Positions 37,220-57,388 of a DNA stretch of 64,000 bases are shown here, one piece after another. Made by a program: the position numbers and the translations under genes. Within the stretch, counting starts at the first letter, position 1; the number at the start of each line of letters is the position of its first letter. The notes beneath the pieces are model-generated. The model ran no database searches. It saw only the letters and a program-made list of their open reading frames with translations, and was not told where the DNA came from. This stretch comes from an uncultured Gammaproteobacteria bacterium (GTDB taxonomy: Bacteria > Patescibacteriota > Microgenomatia > JAMCZE01), in assembly GCA_964641255.1 (NCBI GenBank), contig CAZXMM010000001.1:246973-310972 (forward strand), read 5' to 3'.

Positions 37220-37656
37220 ATCTAGCTACTCTTTCCAAAATAGTACAAAAATCTTACCGTCGAGTGGGTAGGGGGCACGGTTCTGGTCGAGTTAAAACCT
37301 CTGGTCGTGGTACCAAGGGACAAAAAGCTCGGGGAACGATTCCGGTAGCATTTGCTGGTTCATCCCTCCAAGCCTCTTGGTTAAAGCGCCTTCCTTTAAT
37401 GCGGGGCAAGGGGAAGAACAAATCTTTTCAAAAAGACGTGGAAGTCCTAAATCTCAACCGTCTTAACAAATTTAAGGCGGGGTCCACTATTACTCTAGTC
37501 ACTCTCATCGAAGCCGGGGTTATAAATAAACTCGCCACCAGAGTTAAGATTGTTGACAACGGCGAAATCACCGTTGCCCTACGGGTCAAAGTTCCTGCTT
37601 CAGCGGGAGCTGCTAAGAAAATTGAGAAAGCTGGTGGTAGCGTGGAGCCTATTTAG
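37216..37656 (+). CDS. rplO: 50S ribosomal protein L15
   Basis: [23 protein letters not shown]. Confidence 0.95.
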
Positions 37657-38057
37657 TTCTTTTCTTTGTCTTTTTCCAGTTGCGAAGTACACTGTGGACA
37701 CCTAATTGCCTTAACTGCAACTAAGGATTGACAATAAGGACAGATTTTCTGCTCGGGTGGTTTTTCAGACTCGCTTCTAGATCTATTCATTTGTTTTACT
37801 ACCAGAAAGATCACAAAACTGACAATCAGAAAATTGACTACCGTATTAATAAAGGTGCCGTAGTTGATGCTGGCAGTTCCTACTTGAAACTTTAAGTCTG
37901 TGAAATCCACTCGACCCAAGACGATGCCAAATGGCGGCATTAAAATATCATCTACCAAAGAAGAGACGATCTTACCGAAGGCCGTTCCAATTATGACCCC
38001 AATTGCGAGGTCGACGACATTGCCTTTTAGAGCAAACTTCTTGAATTCTTCTAGCAT
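37653..38057 (-). CDS. mscL: Large-conductance mechanosensitive channel MscL with C-terminal zinc-ribbon extension
   Basis: MLEEFKKFALKGNVVDLAIGVIIGTAFGKIV MscL TM1 signature; second TM; C-terminal CPYC...CPQC; start moved to the ATG at 38055-38057 (ORF track starts at a TTG at 38099). Confidence 0.8.
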   Translation of the reverse strand: MLEEFKKFALKGNVVDLAIGVIIGTAFGKIVSSLVDDILMPPFGIVLGRVDFTDLKFQVGTASINYGTFINTVVNFLIVSFVIFLVVKQMNRSRSESEKPPEQKICPYCQSLVAVKAIRCPQCTSQLEKDKEKN

Positions 38058-38121: not shown

Positions 38122-39141
38122 ATGAAGATTCTCCAAATTCCCCCATCTTACCGTCTTTCCAAGACCGCTATCCGATTGCTCTCGGAGATTGAGTCTAATA
38201 GTGCCGTTATCAGTGAAATTTCTCTTCCTCTCGAAGTAGAAAGAAATATTCGTCGTCAATCAGTATTAGGCAGTGCTTTGTTCTCAGCTCGTATAGAAGG
38301 AAACACCCTGACGAGAGCCGAGGTAGAAAATTTCACTAAGCTACCTAGAAAAGATCAGCAACAGGTTGAAGTGGAAAATCTTAGTCGGGTAATAGAGAGA
38401 ATTCTATCTCAATGGGCTAATCCCAACAAGAAAATAACCAAGACGGATCTTTTGGATTGGCAGGGGCAGGCGATGCGAAACATTTTGGATACAGAATTCT
38501 CAAGTAGCTTTAGAACTGGCCATGAAGGACTTTTTGATAGAGCCGGGACTCTTTATTATCATGCTCCCCCGCCAGCCTACATCCCCGCTCTTGTTGACGA
38601 GTTACTCCTCTTTGTAAATAGTAAAAAAGAAAAACTCGTTCCCGTTCGAGCTATTCTTGCCCATTTAGTCTTTGAAAAGATTCACCCTTTTGTTGATGGT
38701 AATGGTCGGGTAGGAAGACTTTTACAGCTCGCGATATTAACTAGGGGTGGCTATGCGATGAAAGGACTGGCAGTTATCGAAGAGGAAATTGAGAAACAGC
38801 GCCAGTTATACTACAGAGCTATTGAACGGAGCAATAATTCTGATGCGACCCCCTTTGTTATGCTAATGCTTGAGCTTATTCGTGACGCCTCCCTAAAAGC
38901 AAAGAAGACTCTTCTTGCCAAGAAAAATAATCCTTCCCAACTTGATGTCTTATCTCCCAGGCGTCAAGAGATTGTCCAAATGGTTTACGACCAACGACTT
39001 ATCTCGTTTGATTCTATTCATAGACGTTTTATCAGGATGAGTTCTCGGCAAATTGCCTACGATCTGGAGTTCTTAATAAAACGTGGCTATCTCACCAAGG
39101 TTGGCACTACCCGGGGAGCTCTCTATGCTCCAAAAGAATAA
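38122..39141 (+). CDS. fic: Fic-family adenylyltransferase (AMPylase), class II (internal inhibitory helix), with C-terminal winged-HTH-like domain
   Basis: Canonical Fic motif HPFVDGNGRVGR; inhibitory motif (S/T)xxxE(G/N) = SARIEGN about 140 aa upstream; C-terminal ~70 aa wHTH-like. Confidence 0.85.
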   Translation: MKILQIPPSYRLSKTAIRLLSEIESNSAVISEISLPLEVERNIRRQSVLGSALFSARIEGNTLTRAEVENFTKLPRKDQQQVEVENLSRVIERILSQWANPNKKITKTDLLDWQGQAMRNILDTEFSSSFRTGHEGLFDRAGTLYYHAPPPAYIPALVDELLLFVNSKKEKLVPVRAILAHLVFEKIHPFVDGNGRVGRLLQLAILTRGGYAMKGLAVIEEEIEKQRQLYYRAIERSNNSDATPFVMLMLELIRDASLKAKKTLLAKKNNPSQLDVLSPRRQEIVQMVYDQRLISFDSIHRRFIRMSSRQIAYDLEFLIKRGYLTKVGTTRGALYAPKE

Positions 39142-43667: not shown

Positions 43668-43728
43668 CGTTAACTTTTTAAAAAAACCAGACGGCCTTTT
43701 TTTAAAGAGTTAAGCAAGAAAGAATTAT

Positions 43729-44652
43729 ATGTTTGAACCAAGTTTCAAGGTCAAGGTGGACCAACAGACAGAAACCTACGGAAGGTTTGTTATTGAACCA
43801 CTAGAGACGGGCTATGCTCACACTCTAGGTAACGCTCTGAGGCGAGTGTTGTTGTCCTCATTTCCTGGGGCAGCAGTAACTAGCATTACAATCGACGGTG
43901 TTAAACACCAGTTTCAAACCCTGGAAGGTTTAAGAGAGGATGTAGTCGAGTTTGTTCTCAATGTTAAAAAGCTACGGGTACGACTTCTCTCTGGTGATAC
44001 AGCCGTAATTACTCTAAAAGCTAGTGGACCGGGAGCTGTCACCGCTGCTTCTATTGAAGAGAGTTCTGACGTGGAAGTGGTTAACAAAGATCTCTACTTG
44101 GGGACACTAGCTGACAAAAAGTCGACTATTACCGCCCAGCTGACCGTAGGAAAGGGCTACGGCTATAGCTTTGGAGAAGAGCGGAAAAATGATTCTGCGG
44201 TGGGAATTATCCCCCTAGATGCGGTTTTTACACCAATAGTACGAGTCAATTTCAGTCAGGAGGCAACTCGGGTGGGGCGACAGACTAATTTCGACCGATT
44301 AATTATGGAAATTTGGACTGACGGAACGATTAGTCCGGCAGATAGTCTGAAAATGGCGGCTAGGACGCTTGTTAGCTATTTTGCTCAAGTTTATGAGCCA
44401 AAAGCTGAAGAGGGAGGAGTAAGTGTTAGTATAAGTTCATCCGTTTCGGACGATGTCTTAAAAATGTTGGTCGAGGAGTTGGATTTGCCAACTCGTTTGG
44501 AGAATGCGCTAAAAAATGGCAATATCGAAACTGTGGGCCAGTTACTTTCTACTCCGCGCAAGGAATTGATGAAAATCAAAAACCTTGGTGGTAAGTCTCT
44601 CTCAATCGTCGAAGACAAACTTCGCGAAAAGGGCGTGACTTTAACAATCTAA
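43729..44652 (+). CDS. rpoA: DNA-directed RNA polymerase alpha subunit
   Basis: N-terminal dimerisation domain plus C-terminal alpha-CTD-like domain; 307 aa. Confidence 0.95.
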   Translation: MFEPSFKVKVDQQTETYGRFVIEPLETGYAHTLGNALRRVLLSSFPGAAVTSITIDGVKHQFQTLEGLREDVVEFVLNVKKLRVRLLSGDTAVITLKASGPGAVTAASIEESSDVEVVNKDLYLGTLADKKSTITAQLTVGKGYGYSFGEERKNDSAVGIIPLDAVFTPIVRVNFSQEATRVGRQTNFDRLIMEIWTDGTISPADSLKMAARTLVSYFAQVYEPKAEEGGVSVSISSSVSDDVLKMLVEELDLPTRLENALKNGNIETVGQLLSTPRKELMKIKNLGGKSLSIVEDKLREKGVTLTI

Positions 44653-44656
44653 TAGT

Positions 44657-45133
44657 ATGCGTCACCGTGTTGCCGGTAATAAATTAGGCAGACGAACCAA
44701 CGTCGTTAAGGCGCTCTATAGAAGTATTGTCTTTGAGTTGTTCGAACATGGTCGGATTGAAACTACCGTTGCTAAGGCGAAAGCGATTCGTGGAATGGTT
44801 GATAAACTGGTGACTCTTGGTAAAAGTGATTCACCAAACAACCGCAGAATGATTGCAAAGATCATGGGCCACGAACATCTTTTAGATCGTATCTTTAAGG
44901 AAGTATCACCCGCTCTTATTAGCAGAAATTCTGGCTTTACTCGCATCATTCGGACTGGGAAGAGACTGTCAGATACTGCCGAGATGGGGATTCTCGAGTT
45001 TGTTGAACCTATTGCTACCAAAGCACCGGCGGTTAAGGCCGAAGTGGTTAACACTGAAGTAGAACCAGCAGTAGAAACCAAGAAGGTAGTACCAAAGGCA
45101 AAGAAGAAGATAGCAGCTAAAAAGAAAGCCTAG
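44657..45133 (+). CDS. rplQ: 50S ribosomal protein L17, with Lys/Ala-rich C-terminal tail
   Basis: MRHRVAGNKLGRRTN... Confidence 0.93.
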   Translation: MRHRVAGNKLGRRTNVVKALYRSIVFELFEHGRIETTVAKAKAIRGMVDKLVTLGKSDSPNNRRMIAKIMGHEHLLDRIFKEVSPALISRNSGFTRIIRTGKRLSDTAEMGILEFVEPIATKAPAVKAEVVNTEVEPAVETKKVVPKAKKKIAAKKKA

Positions 45134-45147
45134 TTTAAAGAAGCTAT

Positions 45148-45522
45148 ATGAAGAGTACTAAAGTATCTGACATCGCTCACAACAAACACCAGCTTGACGC
45201 TAAAGGCGCTATCTTGGGTCGTCTTGCGAGTAAGGCTGCCCAGCTATTAGTAGGCAAAAGTAAGCCGTATTTCGTCCGCCATCTTGACTGTGGGGATTTT
45301 GTCACGATAATAAACGCTAAAGACATTAAGGTTACTGGCAACAAAGAAAGTCAAAAAACCTACGGACACTATTCTGGATATCCAGGAGGACTCAAAGTTA
45401 AACCCCTGAAAAAGATTCGTGAGGAGAATCCTGCCGAAATACTAACACACGCGATTTCGGGAATGCTTCCTAATAACAAACTGCGCGATCAATGGATGAA
45501 AAGACTTATTGTGATAGCTTAA
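45148..45522 (+). CDS. rplM: 50S ribosomal protein L13
   Basis: LGRLASKAAQLL...; placed directly after rplQ. Confidence 0.9.
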   Translation: MKSTKVSDIAHNKHQLDAKGAILGRLASKAAQLLVGKSKPYFVRHLDCGDFVTIINAKDIKVTGNKESQKTYGHYSGYPGGLKVKPLKKIREENPAEILTHAISGMLPNNKLRDQWMKRLIVIA

Positions 45523-45529
45523 AAAATCT

Positions 45530-46057
45530 ATGGCAAAAGAAAAAAAGACCATTGTTAAAAAAGAAAAAAAGGAAACTCCTGTCGTCACCGAAGAAATGGC
45601 AGTAGCTCCCGCCACCGAAAACAAAGCCAATAATAAAGGATTCTTTTATGGTTTTGGACGCAGGAAAACAGCTACAGCTAGAGCTCGACTCTATCTTCCC
45701 ACAGAAGAAATCGTTATTAATGGCACTAAATTAAATCGCGGAGATATCTACGTCAATAATCAACCAATTGATGTGTATTTCAATGATCGTTTCACCAAAG
45801 CTATCTACACGGAAGTCTACAGAACTACGAATACTGTAGGACGTTTCATCACTACGATCGTGGTCAGTGGATCTGGAGCCACCGGACAAAGTGGAGCGGC
45901 AGTACTGGCTATCTCTCGGGCTCTTTGTGCTGTTGATCCTAAATTTAAAGCTACTCTTCGTAAAAAAGGATTCATGACCCGCGATCCCCGAATGAAGGAG
46001 CGCAAAAAGCCCGGTCTGATGGGCGCGCGCAAGCAGAAATCTTCACCAAAGCGCTAA
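45530..46057 (+). CDS. rpsI: 30S ribosomal protein S9, with Lys/Glu-rich N-terminal extension
   Basis: GFGRRKTATARARL ... KKPGLMGARKQKSSPKR. Confidence 0.93.
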   Translation: MAKEKKTIVKKEKKETPVVTEEMAVAPATENKANNKGFFYGFGRRKTATARARLYLPTEEIVINGTKLNRGDIYVNNQPIDVYFNDRFTKAIYTEVYRTTNTVGRFITTIVVSGSGATGQSGAAVLAISRALCAVDPKFKATLRKKGFMTRDPRMKERKKPGLMGARKQKSSPKR

Positions 46058-46065
46058 GCCGATAC

Positions 46066-46722
46066 TTAACTGAGTGAGAGTTTTGCATGTGCAAAGATTC
46101 TATTCAATAAGTTATAGCCAGCAACCATTGAAGGGATCACATTTGAATTCTCTTCGTCAACCTTATCTGTGTCTACCCCATAGTGATGGGCTTCAGCTGT
46201 TCGACAGGCATTGTTAAGATCCTCCACTATTTGTAAATCATTTTTAGGGAATATATTTTCTATGCTCACATTGATCCGCTTTCTAAAAGCATTCAATTTC
46301 TTATCGGATTTGTCGAAGGAATCGTATTGGGGATTATTAAAAAGATAAATTAATAAATGAAAAATCTTGTCATAGTCTGCCCTTATTCTAAGGGAAAGAT
46401 TAAATAATAATTCTTTACGCTTCAGAATGAGCCAACATCGACTACTTGCCTTGAGTTTGGAAAACTCAGGGCTATTAATGAGTTGGTTACTAGCACTGAA
46501 TAAAACAATGTCTTTTCTTATAAGGTAAAAGTTTATAACACTATCAAAAAATATATTAGCGAGCCTCCTATCGGTCGCTAAATATTGACTGTATGTAGCT
46601 TGAGTTTTATTAGAAAAGAAATCGTCAATTACTGGATTAAAACCGAATTCGGGGTATTTTATAACGGTTTCAGTCTTAAGAAACTCTGCAAGATTACTTA
46701 GTAGAAGCTCTTTATCAATCAT
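46066..46722 (-). CDS. Hypothetical AT-rich orphan protein with a possible HEPN-like Rx4H motif; candidate Abi/defence-type RNase
   Basis: 218 aa; conspicuously lower GC than its neighbours; CRTAEAHHYG fits R-x4-H; starts 21 nt downstream of tRNA-Pro on the same strand; convergent with rpsI (8-nt gap). Confidence 0.35.
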   Translation of the reverse strand: MIDKELLLSNLAEFLKTETVIKYPEFGFNPVIDDFFSNKTQATYSQYLATDRRLANIFFDSVINFYLIRKDIVLFSASNQLINSPEFSKLKASSRCWLILKRKELLFNLSLRIRADYDKIFHLLIYLFNNPQYDSFDKSDKKLNAFRKRINVSIENIFPKNDLQIVEDLNNACRTAEAHHYGVDTDKVDEENSNVIPSMVAGYNLLNRIFAHAKLSLS

Positions 46723-46743
46723 TTATGAATTTGTTTCAAAACT

Positions 46744-46818
46744 TGGTCGGGGCGAGAGGAATTGAACCTCCCACTTCTCGGACCCCATCCGAGCGGTCTA
46801 CCGATGACCTACGCCCCG
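46744..46818 (-). tRNA. tRNA-Pro (anticodon GGG), CCA encoded
   Basis: Hand-folded 75-nt cloverleaf: acceptor CGGGGCG/CGCCCCG with C1:G72, D-stem GGTC/GACC, anticodon stem CTCGG/CCGAG, loop AUGGGGU, G37, T-loop TTCAATT, discriminator A plus CCA. Confidence 0.85.
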
Positions 46819-46832
46819 TAACACAGTAATTT

Positions 46833-46845
46833 TATCATAATGATA
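46833..46845. promoter_or_regulatory. Inverted repeat TATCAT-a-ATGATA in the divergent tRNA-Pro/recA promoter region; extra TTATCAT half-site at 46863-46869; candidate operator
   Basis: Read directly; lies between the -35 and -10 of the minus-strand tRNA promoter and about 25 nt upstream of the recA -35. Confidence 0.35.
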
Positions 46846-46868
46846 GTGTATTGATACAGTTTTTATCA

Positions 46869-46897
46869 TTGACACGTTATCCCATAAAAGGTTTAAT
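46869..46897 (+). promoter_or_regulatory. Sigma70-like promoter for recA: -35 TTGACA, 17-nt spacer, -10 TTTAAT
   Basis: Hexamers read directly. Confidence 0.5.
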
Positions 46898-46907
46898 GCG
46901 GCTATCT

Positions 46908-47996
46908 ATGGCAAAGCAAAAAGTCACAACAGATACTGCTCCCGCCCCATCTTCTGATAATAGTCCTAAGACATCCGCGATTCGGCTGGCGATGGAACAG
47001 ATTGAAAAACAATACGGCAAAGGTTCGATCATGAAGATGAACGAAGCCGCCTCTCGCATGAATACTGAAGTTATTTCCACCGGGGTTCTTCCTCTCGATC
47101 TTGCCTTGGGAGTCGGAGGTCTGCCAAGGGGAAGAATCATCGAAATTTACGGGCCGGAAGCCTCTGGGAAAACCAGTGTCATGCTTTCGGTCATTGCCCA
47201 GGCACAAAAAGCGGGAGGGGTAGCCGCCTTTATTGATGCGGAGCACGCACTTGACCCGGTATGGGCAGCGAAGCTGGGAGTGGATCTTAATGAGCTGCTC
47301 ATCTCGCAACCAGATACGGGAGAACAGGCGTTAGAGATTGCTGAACGTTTGATTAGTTCAGCAGCTATTGATGTTATTGTCATCGACTCTGTTGCAGCCC
47401 TTGTTCCTAAAGCGGAAATTGAAGGGGAAATGGGTGATTCCATGATGGGACTACAAGCCAGACTCATGTCTCAAGCCTTGCGCAAATTAACTGGGGTCAT
47501 TAACAAATCCAAAACAGTAGTGATCTTTACCAATCAACTCCGCCAAAAAATTGGGGTGATGTTTGGTAATCCCGAAACTACCCCTGGGGGTCTGGCAATG
47601 AAATTTTATGCATCAGTTCGTTTGGACATTCGCAAGATCGAACAACTTAAAGATGGAGATGTTTCCATTGGGAGTCGGCACCGCGTTAAAGTAGTGAAGA
47701 ACAAAGTGGCCCCACCTTTCCGGGTAGCTGAATTTAACATTTATTCTGCTACCGGCATTTCCTACGAAGACGGTCTGATTGACGTCGGAGTGGAACTGGG
47801 TGTCATTACCAAATCAGGAGCGTTCCTGCGCTATAAAGAAGAGATGTTAGGCCAAGGTAGAGAAGCCGCCAGGCAATATTTGCAGGAAAACCCCAGTACC
47901 GCCAAATTAATTGAAAAAGAGATCATGGCAATGGCCAAGGCAGGAGAAACTGCGGAAAAAGTAGTGCTAGGGGAAGAAGAGGATAAAGAAGAATAG
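46908..47996 (+). CDS. recA: Recombinase RecA
   Basis: GPEASGKTS Walker A, RecA-like throughout; start at MAKQKV (ATG 46908). Confidence 0.95.
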
Positions 47997-48040
47997 TCCT
48001 TCCTTGCACAAGGCATAATATCTCACTACAATCTTCGGTA

Positions 48041-48706
48041 ATGACAATAACAGATCAACTCCTGGCTAATTCGCGGTTTCTTGAATTAATGAGGCTCAAC
48101 GAAGAAGTTGATGAGGCTCATGATTTGAGTCATTTTAAGCGGGTAACAAAGTATGCTTTAGAGATTGGCCAAGAAGAGGGTGCGGATTTAGAAATACTAG
48201 AAGCGGCCGGAATGTTGCACGATATAGCGAGAGGGCTAGAGACTTCAGGAAAGGTTACTGACCATCTTGTTGCTGGTGCAGAATTGACCACAGAAATACT
48301 TAGCGAATTAGAGTTCCCGCCAGAAAAAATTACCAGCGTTGCCTACGCGGTTTCAATTCATCAAAGAAGAGTAGGAACTGAGGCTAAAACTCTTGAGGCT
48401 AAGATTATTCAAGATGCTGATCTTCTAGATACTTTTGGTTTAATCTACGCCACGCGCTCTTTGGTCTGGGGGGTGCAATCAAAAAAATATAGGCGTCCTG
48501 TTTTTGTCGACGAACACCTTGAAAATTGGGACGACCGATACAAAAATCTCTCTACCATACATTATCTTTTGTACCGACTTAATGACCCACTCTACGATCC
48601 CAAAACACTTCACACTTCAAAGGCACAATCGTTGGCTACAGAGAAGAAGAAACTACTTCATGAATTTGTATCAAATTTTATTAAAGAAGCCAGGGGACAA
48701 ATTTAA
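48041..48706 (+). CDS. HD-domain phosphohydrolase
   Basis: H...HDIAR...D pattern; 221 aa. Confidence 0.7.
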   Translation: MTITDQLLANSRFLELMRLNEEVDEAHDLSHFKRVTKYALEIGQEEGADLEILEAAGMLHDIARGLETSGKVTDHLVAGAELTTEILSELEFPPEKITSVAYAVSIHQRRVGTEAKTLEAKIIQDADLLDTFGLIYATRSLVWGVQSKKYRRPVFVDEHLENWDDRYKNLSTIHYLLYRLNDPLYDPKTLHTSKAQSLATEKKKLLHEFVSNFIKEARGQI

Positions 48707-48715
48707 CTTTTAGTT

Positions 48716-49288
48716 ATGGATAGTAAATATGTATCTCGTGGTGGAACCAAACTTGAGCACGCCCTAAGGGAATTTAACCTAAAGTGTACGGGACTCATTT
48801 GCTTTGATATTGGCAGTTCCACCGGCGGATTTGTTGATTGTCTCCTCCAACAGGGGGCTATAAAAGTTTACAGTCTAGATACTGCTTACGGAGAACTTGC
48901 CTGGAAACTTCGCCAAGACGAACGAGTGGTAGTAATGGAGAAAACAAATATTCTTCACTTTACTGATTTTCCAGCTCCAGTTGATTTGGTAACTATTGAT
49001 GTAACCTTTACTCCTCTTAAAAAGATCCTTCCGGTAGCCAAAAACTTTCTTAAGGAGGGGGGGAAAGTGGTTGCCCTTCTTAAGCCCCAGTATGAAGATC
49101 AAAAAGTTGCCATGAAGCACAAAAATAGAGGAGTAGTACCGAGCGAAGATCGTGATAAGATACTAGCTGATAGCCTTAAAGCTATTGCTGCTTTAGGATG
49201 GGTAATTGAAAACCAAACTACCTCACCTATTACTGGAACTGGAGGAAACACTGAGTACCTTGTACTGCTTAGTCAAGTGTCACCATGA
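48716..49288 (+). CDS. tlyA: TlyA-like FtsJ-type rRNA 2'-O-methyltransferase (no S4 domain)
   Basis: YVSRGGTKLEHAL...CFDIGSSTGGFVDCLLQQGA...VYSLD. Confidence 0.75.
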   Translation: MDSKYVSRGGTKLEHALREFNLKCTGLICFDIGSSTGGFVDCLLQQGAIKVYSLDTAYGELAWKLRQDERVVVMEKTNILHFTDFPAPVDLVTIDVTFTPLKKILPVAKNFLKEGGKVVALLKPQYEDQKVAMKHKNRGVVPSEDRDKILADSLKAIAALGWVIENQTTSPITGTGGNTEYLVLLSQVSP

Positions 49289-49953
49289 GAATAACAAAGC
49301 TTGAGTATCAAAAAGACGACCCTAGTAGAGTCAGTGTTTTCATTGATGGTAAGTTTGCCGTGGGGCTTAACACCAATGACGTTTTGACTTTAAAAATTTA
49401 TCAGAATAAGGAAATTACTCCCGAAGAATTCACTGCTCTACTCTCCGTCAGCGAATTGGGGAGACTTTTTAATGACGCTCTTAGTTTTCTTAGTTTCCGG
49501 CCCAGAAGCGAATGGGAAATCCGAAATCATTTAAGTAAAAAGAATCAAGTGGCTAAAGCAAAGGGCAAAGGTAAAGAAGATGGGGCGTTAAATGCGTACA
49601 TTGACCAAATTATTGACAAACTGACCGCCATGGGGCAGGTAAATGACAAAGCCTTCACCGAGTGGTTTCTGGATCAGCGCCAGAGTTTTAAGCCCAAAGG
49701 CAAAAGAGCGCTTGTTTTTGAACTCAGTCAAAAGGGCGTAGCTAGGCGAATTGTTGAAGAGGTGTTAGAAGACCGGGAAACCTTGGGTACAGCTGTCTCC
49801 GAGCTGTCACAGGCCACCATTTTGGCAGAAAAGAAGTTTGGGGGTAAGCTACTGGTAGAACAAAAAGCGAAATTGGCGCGTTTTTTGAGTAGCCGGGGAT
49901 ACGGCTGGGATGTGATTTCTGAAGTGATAGCAAAACTTGCTAAAAAGGAGTAG
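49285..49953 (+). CDS. recX: Regulatory protein RecX
   Basis: RecX-like three-repeat helical protein; 4-nt overlap with upstream gene; near recA. Confidence 0.7.
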   Translation: MRITKLEYQKDDPSRVSVFIDGKFAVGLNTNDVLTLKIYQNKEITPEEFTALLSVSELGRLFNDALSFLSFRPRSEWEIRNHLSKKNQVAKAKGKGKEDGALNAYIDQIIDKLTAMGQVNDKAFTEWFLDQRQSFKPKGKRALVFELSQKGVARRIVEEVLEDRETLGTAVSELSQATILAEKKFGGKLLVEQKAKLARFLSSRGYGWDVISEVIAKLAKKE

Positions 49954-55041: not shown

Positions 55042-57192
55042 TTAGTCCAATTTACCGTAAATTCGCCGAATCCCGGCAGCCACAGATTCCTCTTTAATTA
55101 TATGAAACTTCCCCATATGTAAGGTATATTCAACGTGAGGGCCACCGCAAATTTCTCTACTCACTACATTACCACCACTATCGCTAAAGGTGTAAACCGT
55201 GACTTTGTCAGGATACCTTTCTTTAAAGAAAGCCAGCGCTCCCTTTTTAAGAGCCTCATTGTAGTCCATTGTTTCAACGGTGCGAACGAGATTTTTCTCA
55301 ATTTGCTCATTCACAAAATCCTCCACTGCTTTTACTTGTTCAGGCGTTAGTTTTTCTCCATGAGAGAAGTCAAAACGAAGCCGCTCGGCAGTAAGATTGG
55401 ACCCTTCTTGACGAATGTGGGGTCCCAGCACTTTCCTTAGTCCAGCTTGCAAAAGGTGAGTAGCACTGTGGTACCTAGTAACAATTTCGGAATGATCAGC
55501 TAGCCCTCCTTTAAATTTACCTTCAGTGGCTGATCTTGAAAGAAGTCGATGTTCATTAATCAGTTTTTCTAATCCGGCAGTATCAATGGCCAATCCTTTA
55601 TCATTCATTATTTCTTGAAGTATTTCGATAGGTACTCCATAAGTTGTTATAAATTTAAATGCCCAATATGAATTGAGCGTAATTTTATGATATCGAAAGC
55701 TGTTGATAAGTTCACGAAATCTTGTTTCATCATCTTTTGAAATTATAATTGGTTTTTTTATCTCTTCGAGATTGGTTGAGTAGGGTTTCCCTCCGTTTTT
55801 CGTATATAGCTGGTACAATTCTATTAGACGGTCACGTTGTTCCTCCACAATAAAAGTGTTAATGACGCCCTCTTTAGTGGCAAGTAACGAAAGATTGGAA
55901 AAAAAGGAATTTTTTGTCAGAAAATCGACTGTTTTTTGAACTTCGTATACTTCTTCGATTTCCTTCATTATCACTGAGGGAATATCTTTTGGAGTTTTAT
56001 TTATTGCCGCGATTAGAGGAGTGATTTTTTCAATTTCGTTCATGCCTTTGGCTAATGAATTCCTGAACTTATCTTCTTCCTCCCTTAATATATTTTTAAT
56101 CAGTTCTTGGTTATTAAGTAACTCAGGATACACGACTTTGTAAATAGCAATATTGCTGTCGGCAATAATTGGAGTGAATGAGTCTTGAATTTGTAGCTCT
56201 CTTGCAAAACGGATCGAACGCCTGATTAGTCTTCGTAAAATGTAGCCACGGTCCACGTTAGAGGGTCTTACGCCTTCTGAAATAAGAAATACTGATGATT
56301 TAATATGGTCGGCAATAACACGAAACATAAGGGTGACTCTTTCATCTTTACCATATTTTTTACCAGATATTCTTTCTAACTCTTGAATGTTTTTATAGTG
56401 GATGTCAGTGAGATAGAAATCCGGATTGTCATTTAAGACAGATAGGGTTCGTTCAAATCCACCACCAAAGTCAACATTTTTCTGAGAGAGTTCGGTCAAA
56501 TCTCCGTTTTCTTGTTTTTGATATTGTATGAAGACTGAATTACCAATTTCTAAAAACCTACCACAGTCACAATTAGGATGACATTCGTCATTAGAGAACT
56601 TTGACGTTTCATGTATCTTTCTATCTTGGCCAAAGTCATAAAAAACTTCTGAATCAGGACCACCTATTTCTCCTACGGGCATTTCCGATGGGGTTCCACT
56701 TCTAGACCACCAATTTTTTCTAAAATCATAATAATGAATCCGATTTTCTGGGATTCCTAGAGATTTCCATATTTTTTCGGATTCCTCATCTTTTGGAACG
56801 CTAGCGCTCCCTTTGAAACAAGATACATGCAACTTCTTTAAGGGGATACTGAGGACTTTAGTCAAATACTCTAGATACCAACTGAGTTGTTCATTTTTAA
56901 AATAATCTCCTAACGACCAGTTACCATACATTTCGAAAAAAGTATCATGGCGATTGTCTCCCACCTCTTCAATGTCTTGTCCTCGGAAGCATTTCTGAAT
57001 ATCTACCAGTCTAGTGCCTAGCGGATGGGGTTGGCCAAGAAGATACGGAATCAAAGGCTGCATGCCCGAGCCGGTAAAAAGTGTGGTAGGGTCGTTGTCA
57101 GGAACCAGTGAACTCGAATGAATATGCACGTGGTTTCTGGGGGCCTCCTGCCAAAACTTGAAATATTTATCGCGCAATTCTAAATGTGTCAT
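55042..57192 (-). CDS. alaS: Alanine--tRNA ligase, short form lacking C-terminal C-Ala domain
   Basis: Catalytic core (FTGSGMQPLIPY, FEMYGNWSLGDYF); editing domain HSATHLL...HxxxH...CGGPHV; start moved to the ATG at 57190-57192 (ORF track starts at a TTG at 57222). Confidence 0.9.
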   Translation of the reverse strand: MTHLELRDKYFKFWQEAPRNHVHIHSSSLVPDNDPTTLFTGSGMQPLIPYLLGQPHPLGTRLVDIQKCFRGQDIEEVGDNRHDTFFEMYGNWSLGDYFKNEQLSWYLEYLTKVLSIPLKKLHVSCFKGSASVPKDEESEKIWKSLGIPENRIHYYDFRKNWWSRSGTPSEMPVGEIGGPDSEVFYDFGQDRKIHETSKFSNDECHPNCDCGRFLEIGNSVFIQYQKQENGDLTELSQKNVDFGGGFERTLSVLNDNPDFYLTDIHYKNIQELERISGKKYGKDERVTLMFRVIADHIKSSVFLISEGVRPSNVDRGYILRRLIRRSIRFARELQIQDSFTPIIADSNIAIYKVVYPELLNNQELIKNILREEEDKFRNSLAKGMNEIEKITPLIAAINKTPKDIPSVIMKEIEEVYEVQKTVDFLTKNSFFSNLSLLATKEGVINTFIVEEQRDRLIELYQLYTKNGGKPYSTNLEEIKKPIIISKDDETRFRELINSFRYHKITLNSYWAFKFITTYGVPIEILQEIMNDKGLAIDTAGLEKLINEHRLLSRSATEGKFKGGLADHSEIVTRYHSATHLLQAGLRKVLGPHIRQEGSNLTAERLRFDFSHGEKLTPEQVKAVEDFVNEQIEKNLVRTVETMDYNEALKKGALAFFKERYPDKVTVYTFSDSGGNVVSREICGGPHVEYTLHMGKFHIIKEESVAAGIRRIYGKLD

Positions 57193-57388
57193 ACCAACAA
57201 AAAAACTCGTCTGTGTAACCAAATACTCACTTTGGGTTACAAGGACGAGTCAAACTCGTGGTACCACCTTGTTTTACCCTCCAAAGCCTTGGCGACGGAG
57301 GGCCTCTCTTGTCTAATTTATACAGTAGACCTCTGTAAAGCTCCCGGGGTGGCCTTTCCTGACAGGAATTCTTCCCGATCAACGCTCA
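57193..57388 (-). promoter_or_regulatory. T-box riboswitch leader upstream of alaS (candidate Ala specifier GCC)
   Basis: Minus strand reads ...CAAGG-UGGUACC-ACGAG-UUUGA-CUCGU-CCUUG..., the canonical antiterminator with 7-nt UGGNACC bulge (+57255..57270); overlapping long terminator hairpin plus U7 (+57199..57250); upstream stem GGAGGG/CCCUCC; possible specifier ...GAAAG-GCC-A. Confidence 0.7.

Follow-up and report, generated by a model that had tools for sequence, protein, structure and literature searches.

A candidate HEPN-like RNase gene from a rare protein family in a tRNA-Pro-linked variable slot of a Microgenomates-type bacterium

Gene organization between rpsI and recA

The 64-kb stretch of bacterial DNA analyzed here (the window) contains, between rpsI and recA, a 218-aa open reading frame (ORF) that lies directly downstream of a tRNA-Pro(GGG) gene and encodes a candidate, divergent member of a HEPN-like protein family. 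The product is predicted to be a stand-alone RNase toxin or a protein of the abortive-infection (Abi) type. Positions given below are window coordinates, residue numbers refer to the protein encoded in the window, and L-numbers are the locus labels of relatives. The gene order is rpoA-rplQ-rplM-rpsI, followed by the ORF and tRNA-Pro, and then recA-HD-FtsJ-recX-rny, with the range 46066-46818 covering the ORF plus the tRNA (Table 1). According to S9 and RecA relatives, the DNA stems from a bacterium of the Microgenomates group within the candidate phyla radiation (CPR); its longest contig measures 950 kb, and its nearest named relatives are Gottesmanbacteria and Daviesbacteria.

The tRNA-Pro(GGG) gene was identified by ARAGORN as the sole tRNA gene in the whole 64 kb, scored 55.5 bits with the Rfam tRNA model, and has an encoded CCA end. 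These predictions and the coordinates agree with the first-pass annotation, which had placed the start of the ORF 21 nt 3' of a same-strand tRNA-Pro(GGG). An earlier start is impossible because an in-frame TAA directly precedes the ATG, and since 8 nt separate the ORF from rpsI and 21 nt from the tRNA there is no room for a second gene beside it.

Table 1. Location of the features discussed in the text; a locus label in front of the location marks tRNA-derived sequences in related loci.
Feature	Location	Strand	Remarks
218-aa ORF	46066..46722	minus	ATG start; candidate HEPN-like family member
Codons R174-T-A-E-A-H179 (Rx4H)	46186..46203	minus	Within CRTAEAHHYG; predicted catalytic site
Codons L111-R-I-R-A-D-Y-D-K119	46366..46392	minus	Second conserved block; predicted core helix 2
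tRNA/ORF spacer, 21 nt	46723..46743	minus	From tRNA 3' end (CCA) to ATG of the ORF
tRNA-Pro(GGG)	46744..46818	minus
Extended -10-like box TGATAAAAT	46829..46837	minus	About 10 nt upstream of tRNA 5' end
Palindrome ATGATAGTGTATTGATACAGTTTTTATCAT	46840-46869		Divergent tRNA-Pro/recA intergenic region
Gap between stops of ORF and rpsI, 8 nt	46058..46065		Convergent genes
rpsI	45530..46057	plus	Convergent with ORF
recA	start 46911	plus
MscL gene	37653..38057	minus	Between rplO and secY
Fic gene	38122..39141	plus	Between rplO and secY; 339 aa
alaS	55042-57222	minus	Alanyl-tRNA synthetase gene
tRNA-Pro 3'-end repeats	L089, 9443-9459 and 9594-9609
tRNA-Pro 3'-end repeat	L110, 7892-7908
tRNA-Pro 3'-end repeat	L002, 4771-4787
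Fragment of tRNA 5' half, 34 nt	L110, 8091-8124

The ORF is a real gene, since the chance of a 218-codon frame staying open at its composition is about 6e-8; an identical protein is present in two independent assemblies. With a GC content of 0.338 against a window mean of 0.439 it occupies the lowest 657-nt stretch of the window (0.13% of sliding windows are as low), and it ranks last in GC among the 58 ORFs of at least 120 aa (z = −3.5; z = −2.1 for GC at third codon positions). The unusual AT-richness ascribed to it in the first-pass annotation is thus the most extreme composition in the window. The amino acids L, N, I, K and F are abundant in the protein.

A rare protein family with two conserved blocks

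Searches of Pfam, NCBIfam, PHROGs and PADLOC with the ORF protein gave no match except an irrelevant one to DUF5659 below threshold, and a word-indexed search of 5.8 billion proteins returned only the protein itself. Two weak relatives (E = 1e-5 and 2e-4) emerged from an exhaustive phmmer search of 1.84 billion representatives. A profile built from these three sequences added three more, and a pattern scan of metagenome contigs from JGI recovered 17 family loci. In total the family comprises about 20 relatives in more than 15 billion proteins, all annotated as 'hypothetical'. The description of the gene as an orphan therefore holds for curated families and for the initial search, which had only two weak hits, but not for profile and pattern searches. 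The family motif strings were not found in any published paper. We consider the ORF protein to be a member of a rare, previously unnamed and effectively new small family, which is plausibly of an already known kind and does not represent a new system.

One of the members is OGR05708.1, a 'hypothetical protein' of Deltaproteobacteria bacterium RIFOXYD12_FULL_50_9, and the family is therefore patchily distributed across distant phyla. No relatives were found in the viral contigs of IMG/VR, the phages of INPHARED or the plasmids of PLSDB, which leaves a phage or plasmid origin unsupported.

An alignment of 17 family sequences, which share 16-23% identity with the ORF protein, has 14 invariant columns: D60, R112, R114, A115, D118, K119, Y133, F146, R174, T175, E177, A178, H179 and N204. 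The two conserved blocks are summarized in the family signature LRYRAlWDK ... F(D/N)xxFRTxEAHGxGxxRK. The second part of the signature contains the Rx4H motif that the first-pass annotation had recognized in CRTAEAHHYG and linked to HEPN RNases. The motif is indeed present, and its R174 and H179 are invariant in 17/17 members and are kept in further family fragments outside the alignment (R-T-x-E-A-H). Taken alone the motif is weak, as Rx4H occurs by chance in 18% of shuffles of the ORF protein and Rx4-6H in 46%; it weighs as evidence only because R174, T175, E177, A178 and H179 are invariant across relatives.

Predicted structure and relation to HEPN proteins

HEPN domains are four-helix bundles with frequent inserts between helices 2 and 3. 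Their Rx4-6H site is found where helix 3 ends or where the loop to helix 4 begins, the residue following the arginine is usually N, D or H, and helix 2 carries a conserved acidic residue, typically in the pattern E-x3-K/R (PMC3710099). Two AlphaFold2 models were compared with this description, one of the ORF protein (P0001; mean predicted local distance difference test score, pLDDT, 70; predicted template modeling score, pTM, 0.65) and one of a family member (P0122; pLDDT 82, pTM 0.81).

Both models are all-alpha and agree in the order of their elements. The N-terminal region is helical and is followed by a long helix with D60, a long helix with R112, R114, D118 and K119, two short inserted helices, a helix that ends two residues before the motif arginine, a T-x-E-A-H loop of low confidence, and a final long helix with N204. 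The helix carrying the second conserved block spans residues 92-128 in P0001 and 97-132 in P0122. The Rx4H motif follows the penultimate core helix, which covers 160-172 before R174 in P0001 and 162-178 before R180 in P0122, and in both predicted models it is thus located where HEPN proteins have it. The structure prediction suggested in the first-pass annotation accordingly produced a four-helix bundle that is compatible with a HEPN fold. In a Foldseek search against the PDB the rows of highest probability were the HEPN-MNT toxins 7bxo_F and 5yep_B.

The search with profile hidden Markov models (HMMs), which had been proposed as well, did not place the family in a HEPN clan. The sole curated family touched was the Cthe_2314-like HEPN family (PF18730), a bacterial family in which Rx4-6H is conserved and for which no operon partners are known (PMC3710099). 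Its profile HEPN_Cthe2314 matched one of the 17 members, P0002, with E = 0.042 and 14.3 bits, which is below the cut-off of 27.1 bits, and the ORF protein itself gave no match. The match aligns residues 132-231 of P0002 with positions 51-148 of the 174 in the profile, and this region holds both conserved blocks. Because motif and topology agree with HEPN, the fold is compatible but non-discriminating, and membership by profile is lacking, we use the term 'HEPN-like' for the family.

Of the known systems, AbiU2 (PF18734) and AbiD/AbiF (Abi_2) resemble the family in being single-gene, all-alpha proteins of about 200 aa that carry R-x4-6-H near the C-terminal third and occur in defence islands. 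There is no similarity at the profile level, though: the family has RTxEAH where these proteins have R-N/x-K-x-x-A-H, and it possesses the additional invariant block LRxRAxxDK. The HEPN-MNT toxins (SO_3166, 5yep; 7ae2, 7bxo, 8xdj) are proteins of about 130 aa paired with an AMPylating minimal nucleotidyltransferase (MNT) antitoxin, whereas the ORF protein is larger (218 aa), with additional helices in its N-terminal region, and none of the family loci has a neighboring MNT gene. Unlike the Csm6/Csx1 HEPN proteins of type III CRISPR systems, the family has no CARF domain and no CRISPR-cas context.

Genomic context of the family members

About four of 12 informative loci place family members in the neighborhood of defence or toxin genes. 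In L107, the locus of OGR05708.1, PglZ (PADLOC E = 0) and BrxL (2e-298) are followed by the family member, an AbiU2 HEPN gene (Pfam 1e-22) directly beside it, further genes, and a XerD-like recombinase recognized by eye. This is a typical defence island with BREX and AbiU2 genes. In L098 the member lies between a gene for a 112-aa membrane protein and Phd/ParE, which is followed by mutL-mutS. In L097, from a genome related to that of L098, the first two genes are kept and other cargo takes the place of the toxin-antitoxin pair. Two ORFs away from the member, about 1.5 kb downstream, this cargo contains a PDC-S63 candidate (DUF6933). In L083 the member is located between a weakly AbiU2-like ORF (E = 0.064) and a 249-aa ORF.

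The small ORFs that flank the member in L083 (1247-1771 and 2705-3454) each have an Rx5H of their own, RDKYVAH and RNNLSFH, the latter in the 249-aa ORF, and three distinct HEPN-like genes may be clustered at this locus.

Two other loci contain tRNA genes. In L093 a DUF2188 gene overlaps the start of the member and tRNA-Arg and tRNA-Pro(TGG) are found within 3 kb, and in L082 the member is upstream of tRNA-Cys and tRNA-Leu, at a distance of about 450 nt. The loci have no conserved partner gene in common, and the protein therefore appears to act alone.

A variable slot at tRNA-Pro(GGG)

Related contigs were retrieved via homologs of S9. A scan of GTDB genomes by RecA lacked specificity, this protein being too conserved, and of its results only L002, from Daviesbacteria, was useful. 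In L090, with a RecA 82% identical to that of the window, rpsI is followed by tRNA-Pro(GGG) in plus orientation, a 206-aa ORF that starts 3 nt after the tRNA and has a DxDxT motif (HAD-like by eye), and recA-FtsJ-recX-rny. The other loci with a complete frame are L087 (rpsI, MGMT, a beta-helix protein, tRNA-Pro on the minus strand, recA), L109 (rpsI, DUF2298 on the minus strand, tRNA-Pro on the plus strand, recA) and L110 (rpsI, then DUF5652, a 466-aa ORF and tRNA-Pro, all on the minus strand, and recA). In L089 rpsI is followed by four unrelated ORFs and a minus-strand tRNA-Pro, the retrieved stretch being without recA. A Bro-N ORF follows rpsI in L108 and a 193-aa ORF in L088, and in L002 a minus-strand tRNA-Pro lies about 1 kb upstream of recA.

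These gene orders define a conserved frame rpsI-[cargo]-tRNA-Pro(GGG)-recA with a different cargo each time. The tRNA adjoins recA in L002, L087, L090, L109 and L110, with plus orientation in L090 and L109 and minus orientation elsewhere, and it is native to the rpsI...recA frame in the lineage of the window. A gene order without the ORF, which the first-pass annotation had suggested looking for in related genomes, is in fact the rule: none of the nine related loci examined has the ORF in this slot, and the family HMM detected no member in any of the loci described above.

Perfect att-like direct repeats of the tRNA-Pro 3' end, 16-17 nt long and some with a few trailer bases, occur downstream of the tRNA in L089, L110 and L002, and L110 additionally contains a fragment of the tRNA 5' half (Table 1). 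Judged by their sequence, these repeats are marks of site-specific, repeated integration at tRNA-Pro. Such loci resemble the integration hotspots known from tRNA genes in two respects, the variable cargo that follows one tRNA and the repeated tRNA 3' end. The island in the window differs from such hotspots in that it consists of a single 657-bp gene without integrase or repeat, and the orientation of the tRNA changes between relatives.

The tRNA-Pro(GGG) genes at the recA-adjacent locus are of two types. Type 1 (window, L002, L109) is 81-88% identical within the type, type 2 (L087, L089, L090, L110) 79-97%, and identity between types is about 65-70%, ranging over 61-75%. The types are found in both orientations, and their alternation does not follow RecA relatedness, a pattern that points to recurrent replacement. 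The tRNA of the window is 88% identical to that of Daviesbacteria and 69-71% identical to those of closer relatives. The possibility that it is a xenolog that arrived together with the ORF is weakened by the occurrence of the same type in L109, a close relative by RecA.

The ribosomal supercluster of the window also contains an MscL gene and a Fic gene (PDB 4rgl Fic, E = 4e-22) between rplO and secY. They form a second non-ribosomal insertion, possibly of toxin type, in the same operon region.

Expression signals

An extended -10-like box, TGATAAAAT, precedes the tRNA 5' end by about 10 nt; it is conserved in an alignment of five lineages and is a putative promoter element of tRNA-Pro. Neither a promoter-like site nor a Shine-Dalgarno sequence is present in the 21 nt that separate the tRNA from the ORF, and Rfam detected no structured element besides the tRNA. 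Because this spacer is so short and has no promoter, the ORF is most likely transcribed as a trailer of the tRNA. Co-transcription is further favored by the conserved box and by L090, where a different ORF begins 3 nt after the tRNA. At the other end of the gene, the gap between rpsI and the ORF has 0 terminator-like sites and no stable hairpin (z = 0.05).

Lack of a Shine-Dalgarno sequence is not unusual in this region, since the neighboring genes are without one as well: GGAG, GAGG or AGGA is absent from the 30 nt upstream of the start for nine consecutive genes around the ORF (43700-49300). The start context ATCTATGGCAAA is shared by rpsI and recA, and together these features suggest that initiation in this genome is independent of Shine-Dalgarno sequences.

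The intergenic region between the divergent tRNA-Pro and recA genes contains the palindrome ATGATAGTGTATTGATACAGTTTTTATCAT. Both of its strands scored as promoter-like, and it may serve recA and the tRNA as a common operator or as a promoter element active in both directions.

Proposed function and alternative explanations

Together the data lead us to propose, with a probability of roughly 55%, that the ORF is a horizontally acquired stand-alone gene for a HEPN-like RNase toxin or abortive-infection protein, residing in a variable slot linked to tRNA-Pro. By analogy with other HEPN proteins, its product would be a four-helix bundle acting as a dimeric, metal-independent endoribonuclease. RNA would be cleaved by the pair R174/H179, aided by T175 and E177 and by R114, D118 and K119 of helix 2. 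When triggered, for example by a phage, the enzyme may cause growth arrest or abortive infection. The gene would have been acquired horizontally by a CPR bacterium of the Microgenomates type, into the hypervariable cargo slot downstream of tRNA-Pro(GGG), and would be read as the 3' trailer of the tRNA-Pro precursor, with transcription starting at the conserved TGATAAAAT box. Its expression may be reduced by an antisense effect of convergent, unterminated transcription out of the ribosomal-protein operon.

Several observations weigh against this proposal. Regarding the protein, the residue after the arginine is the invariant T175, which is polar but not one of the usual N, D or H, and the acidic motif, although in the right helix, is R114-x3-D118-K119 and not E-x3-K/R. 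The motif loop has a pLDDT below 50 in both models. Foldseek gave no match below E = 0.1 in the PDB, and a fold search with the better model, P0122, did not separate HEPN proteins from generic helical bundles. None of the 17 members significantly matched a curated HEPN profile of Pfam, NCBIfam or PADLOC, an hhalign comparison of the family with the neighboring AbiU2 protein of L107 indicated no relationship (probability 0.1), and a sequence search of the PDB with family profiles gave only spurious matches such as L9 and thyroxine-binding globulin. The ORF protein is furthermore the most divergent member and is without the near-invariant G182 and K186.

Regarding acquisition, no integrase, att repeat, partner gene or other defence gene is found next to the ORF within the window, and a second copy of the tRNA 3' end is absent from the window even if 3 mismatches are allowed. 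The family genes are 2-8 GC points below their own flanks in 11/11 loci tested, and the low GC is therefore partly intrinsic to the family or protein. We consequently rejected low GC as sole proof of recent transfer; the second-lowest GC in the window, 0.386, belongs to the housekeeping gene alaS. The defence or abortive-infection role put forward in the first-pass annotation is thus partly supported. Neither of the two outcomes that the annotation named as refuting was observed, and the role draws support from the homologs near BREX/AbiU2, Phd/ParE and PDC-S63 and from the att-like repeats in relatives, but the window itself offers neither integrase nor att repeat.

The foremost alternative, which we regard as rather unlikely, is that the family consists of four-helix-bundle proteins with another role. 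They might be regulators that bind nucleotides or ligands, HEPN-like adaptors without catalytic activity, or enzymes not acting on RNA; the conserved R, H, D and K residues would then serve that role, and the Rx4H spacing would be coincidental. The absence of significant Foldseek and HEPN profile matches and the frequency of Rx4H in shuffled sequences are in line with this explanation, and the invariant set (D60, R112, R114, D118, K119, Y133, F146, N204) is richer than the minimal HEPN signature. On the other hand, the predicted models agree with HEPN proteins in the position of the motif at the end of helix 3, in the insert that separates helices 2 and 3, and in the acidic residue of helix 2, and homologs occur beside AbiU2, BREX, a toxin-antitoxin pair and PDC-S63.

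It is improbable that an old insertion at tRNA-Pro has left the gene as a decaying or silent remnant, with a frame that is still open but has lost its function. The divergence of the protein with its loss of G182 and K186, the missing integrase and att repeat, the lack of an own promoter and Shine-Dalgarno sequence, and the lower model confidence compared to P0122 (pLDDT 70 vs 82) would fit such a history. However, the frame is intact over its full length at 34% GC, at which it would hardly stay open if unconstrained, and all 14 family-invariant residues are kept. Bona fide neighboring genes equally lack a Shine-Dalgarno sequence, and the presence of the identical protein in two independent assemblies argues against decay as well.

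We consider it very improbable that tRNA and ORF form a functional unit, with a tRNA-directed (anticodon-type) HEPN nuclease linked in its expression or specificity to the processing of tRNA-Pro(GGG). In favor of such a unit, HEPN anticodon nucleases do exist (PrrC and RloC; PMC3710099), the ORF follows the tRNA with no promoter in between, tRNA genes are near the members in L082 and L093, and the locus has two divergent types of tRNA-Pro(GGG) whose alternation does not follow RecA relatedness. Against it, most family members have no tRNA nearby, the ORF protein is without the ATPase or sensor domain of PrrC and RloC, and the tRNA of relatives precedes unrelated genes (a HAD-like ORF, a MazG-like ORF, DUF2298), so that the slot and not the gene accounts for the adjacency.

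Implications

A stand-alone HEPN-like RNase toxin, which is the function we prefer for the ORF, would extend current concepts rather than change them. The work adds a rare, formerly unnamed family to the HEPN-type predicted RNases, and its sharp signature (LRxRAxWDK ... FRTxEAHGxG) could form the basis of a profile for the annotation of defence islands.

If both the RNase activity and the tRNA-linked expression are real, the locus would be a compact case of a toxin under a tRNA promoter. As a speculation to which we attach little likelihood, tRNA and toxin gene could even constitute one regulatory cassette, in which the mRNA exists only as the trailer of the tRNA-Pro(GGG) precursor and its level is set by tRNA processing through RNase P and 3' trimming. 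Read-through from the ribosomal operon would then act as a growth-rate-dependent antisense brake, and the nuclease might target tRNA. Such a cassette, if true, would tie a stand-alone toxin directly to the condition of the translation machinery in a CPR bacterium with a minimal genome. More generally, a hypervariable cargo slot at tRNA-Pro(GGG), placed between recA and the ribosomal supercluster, persists even in CPR genomes of about 1 Mb.

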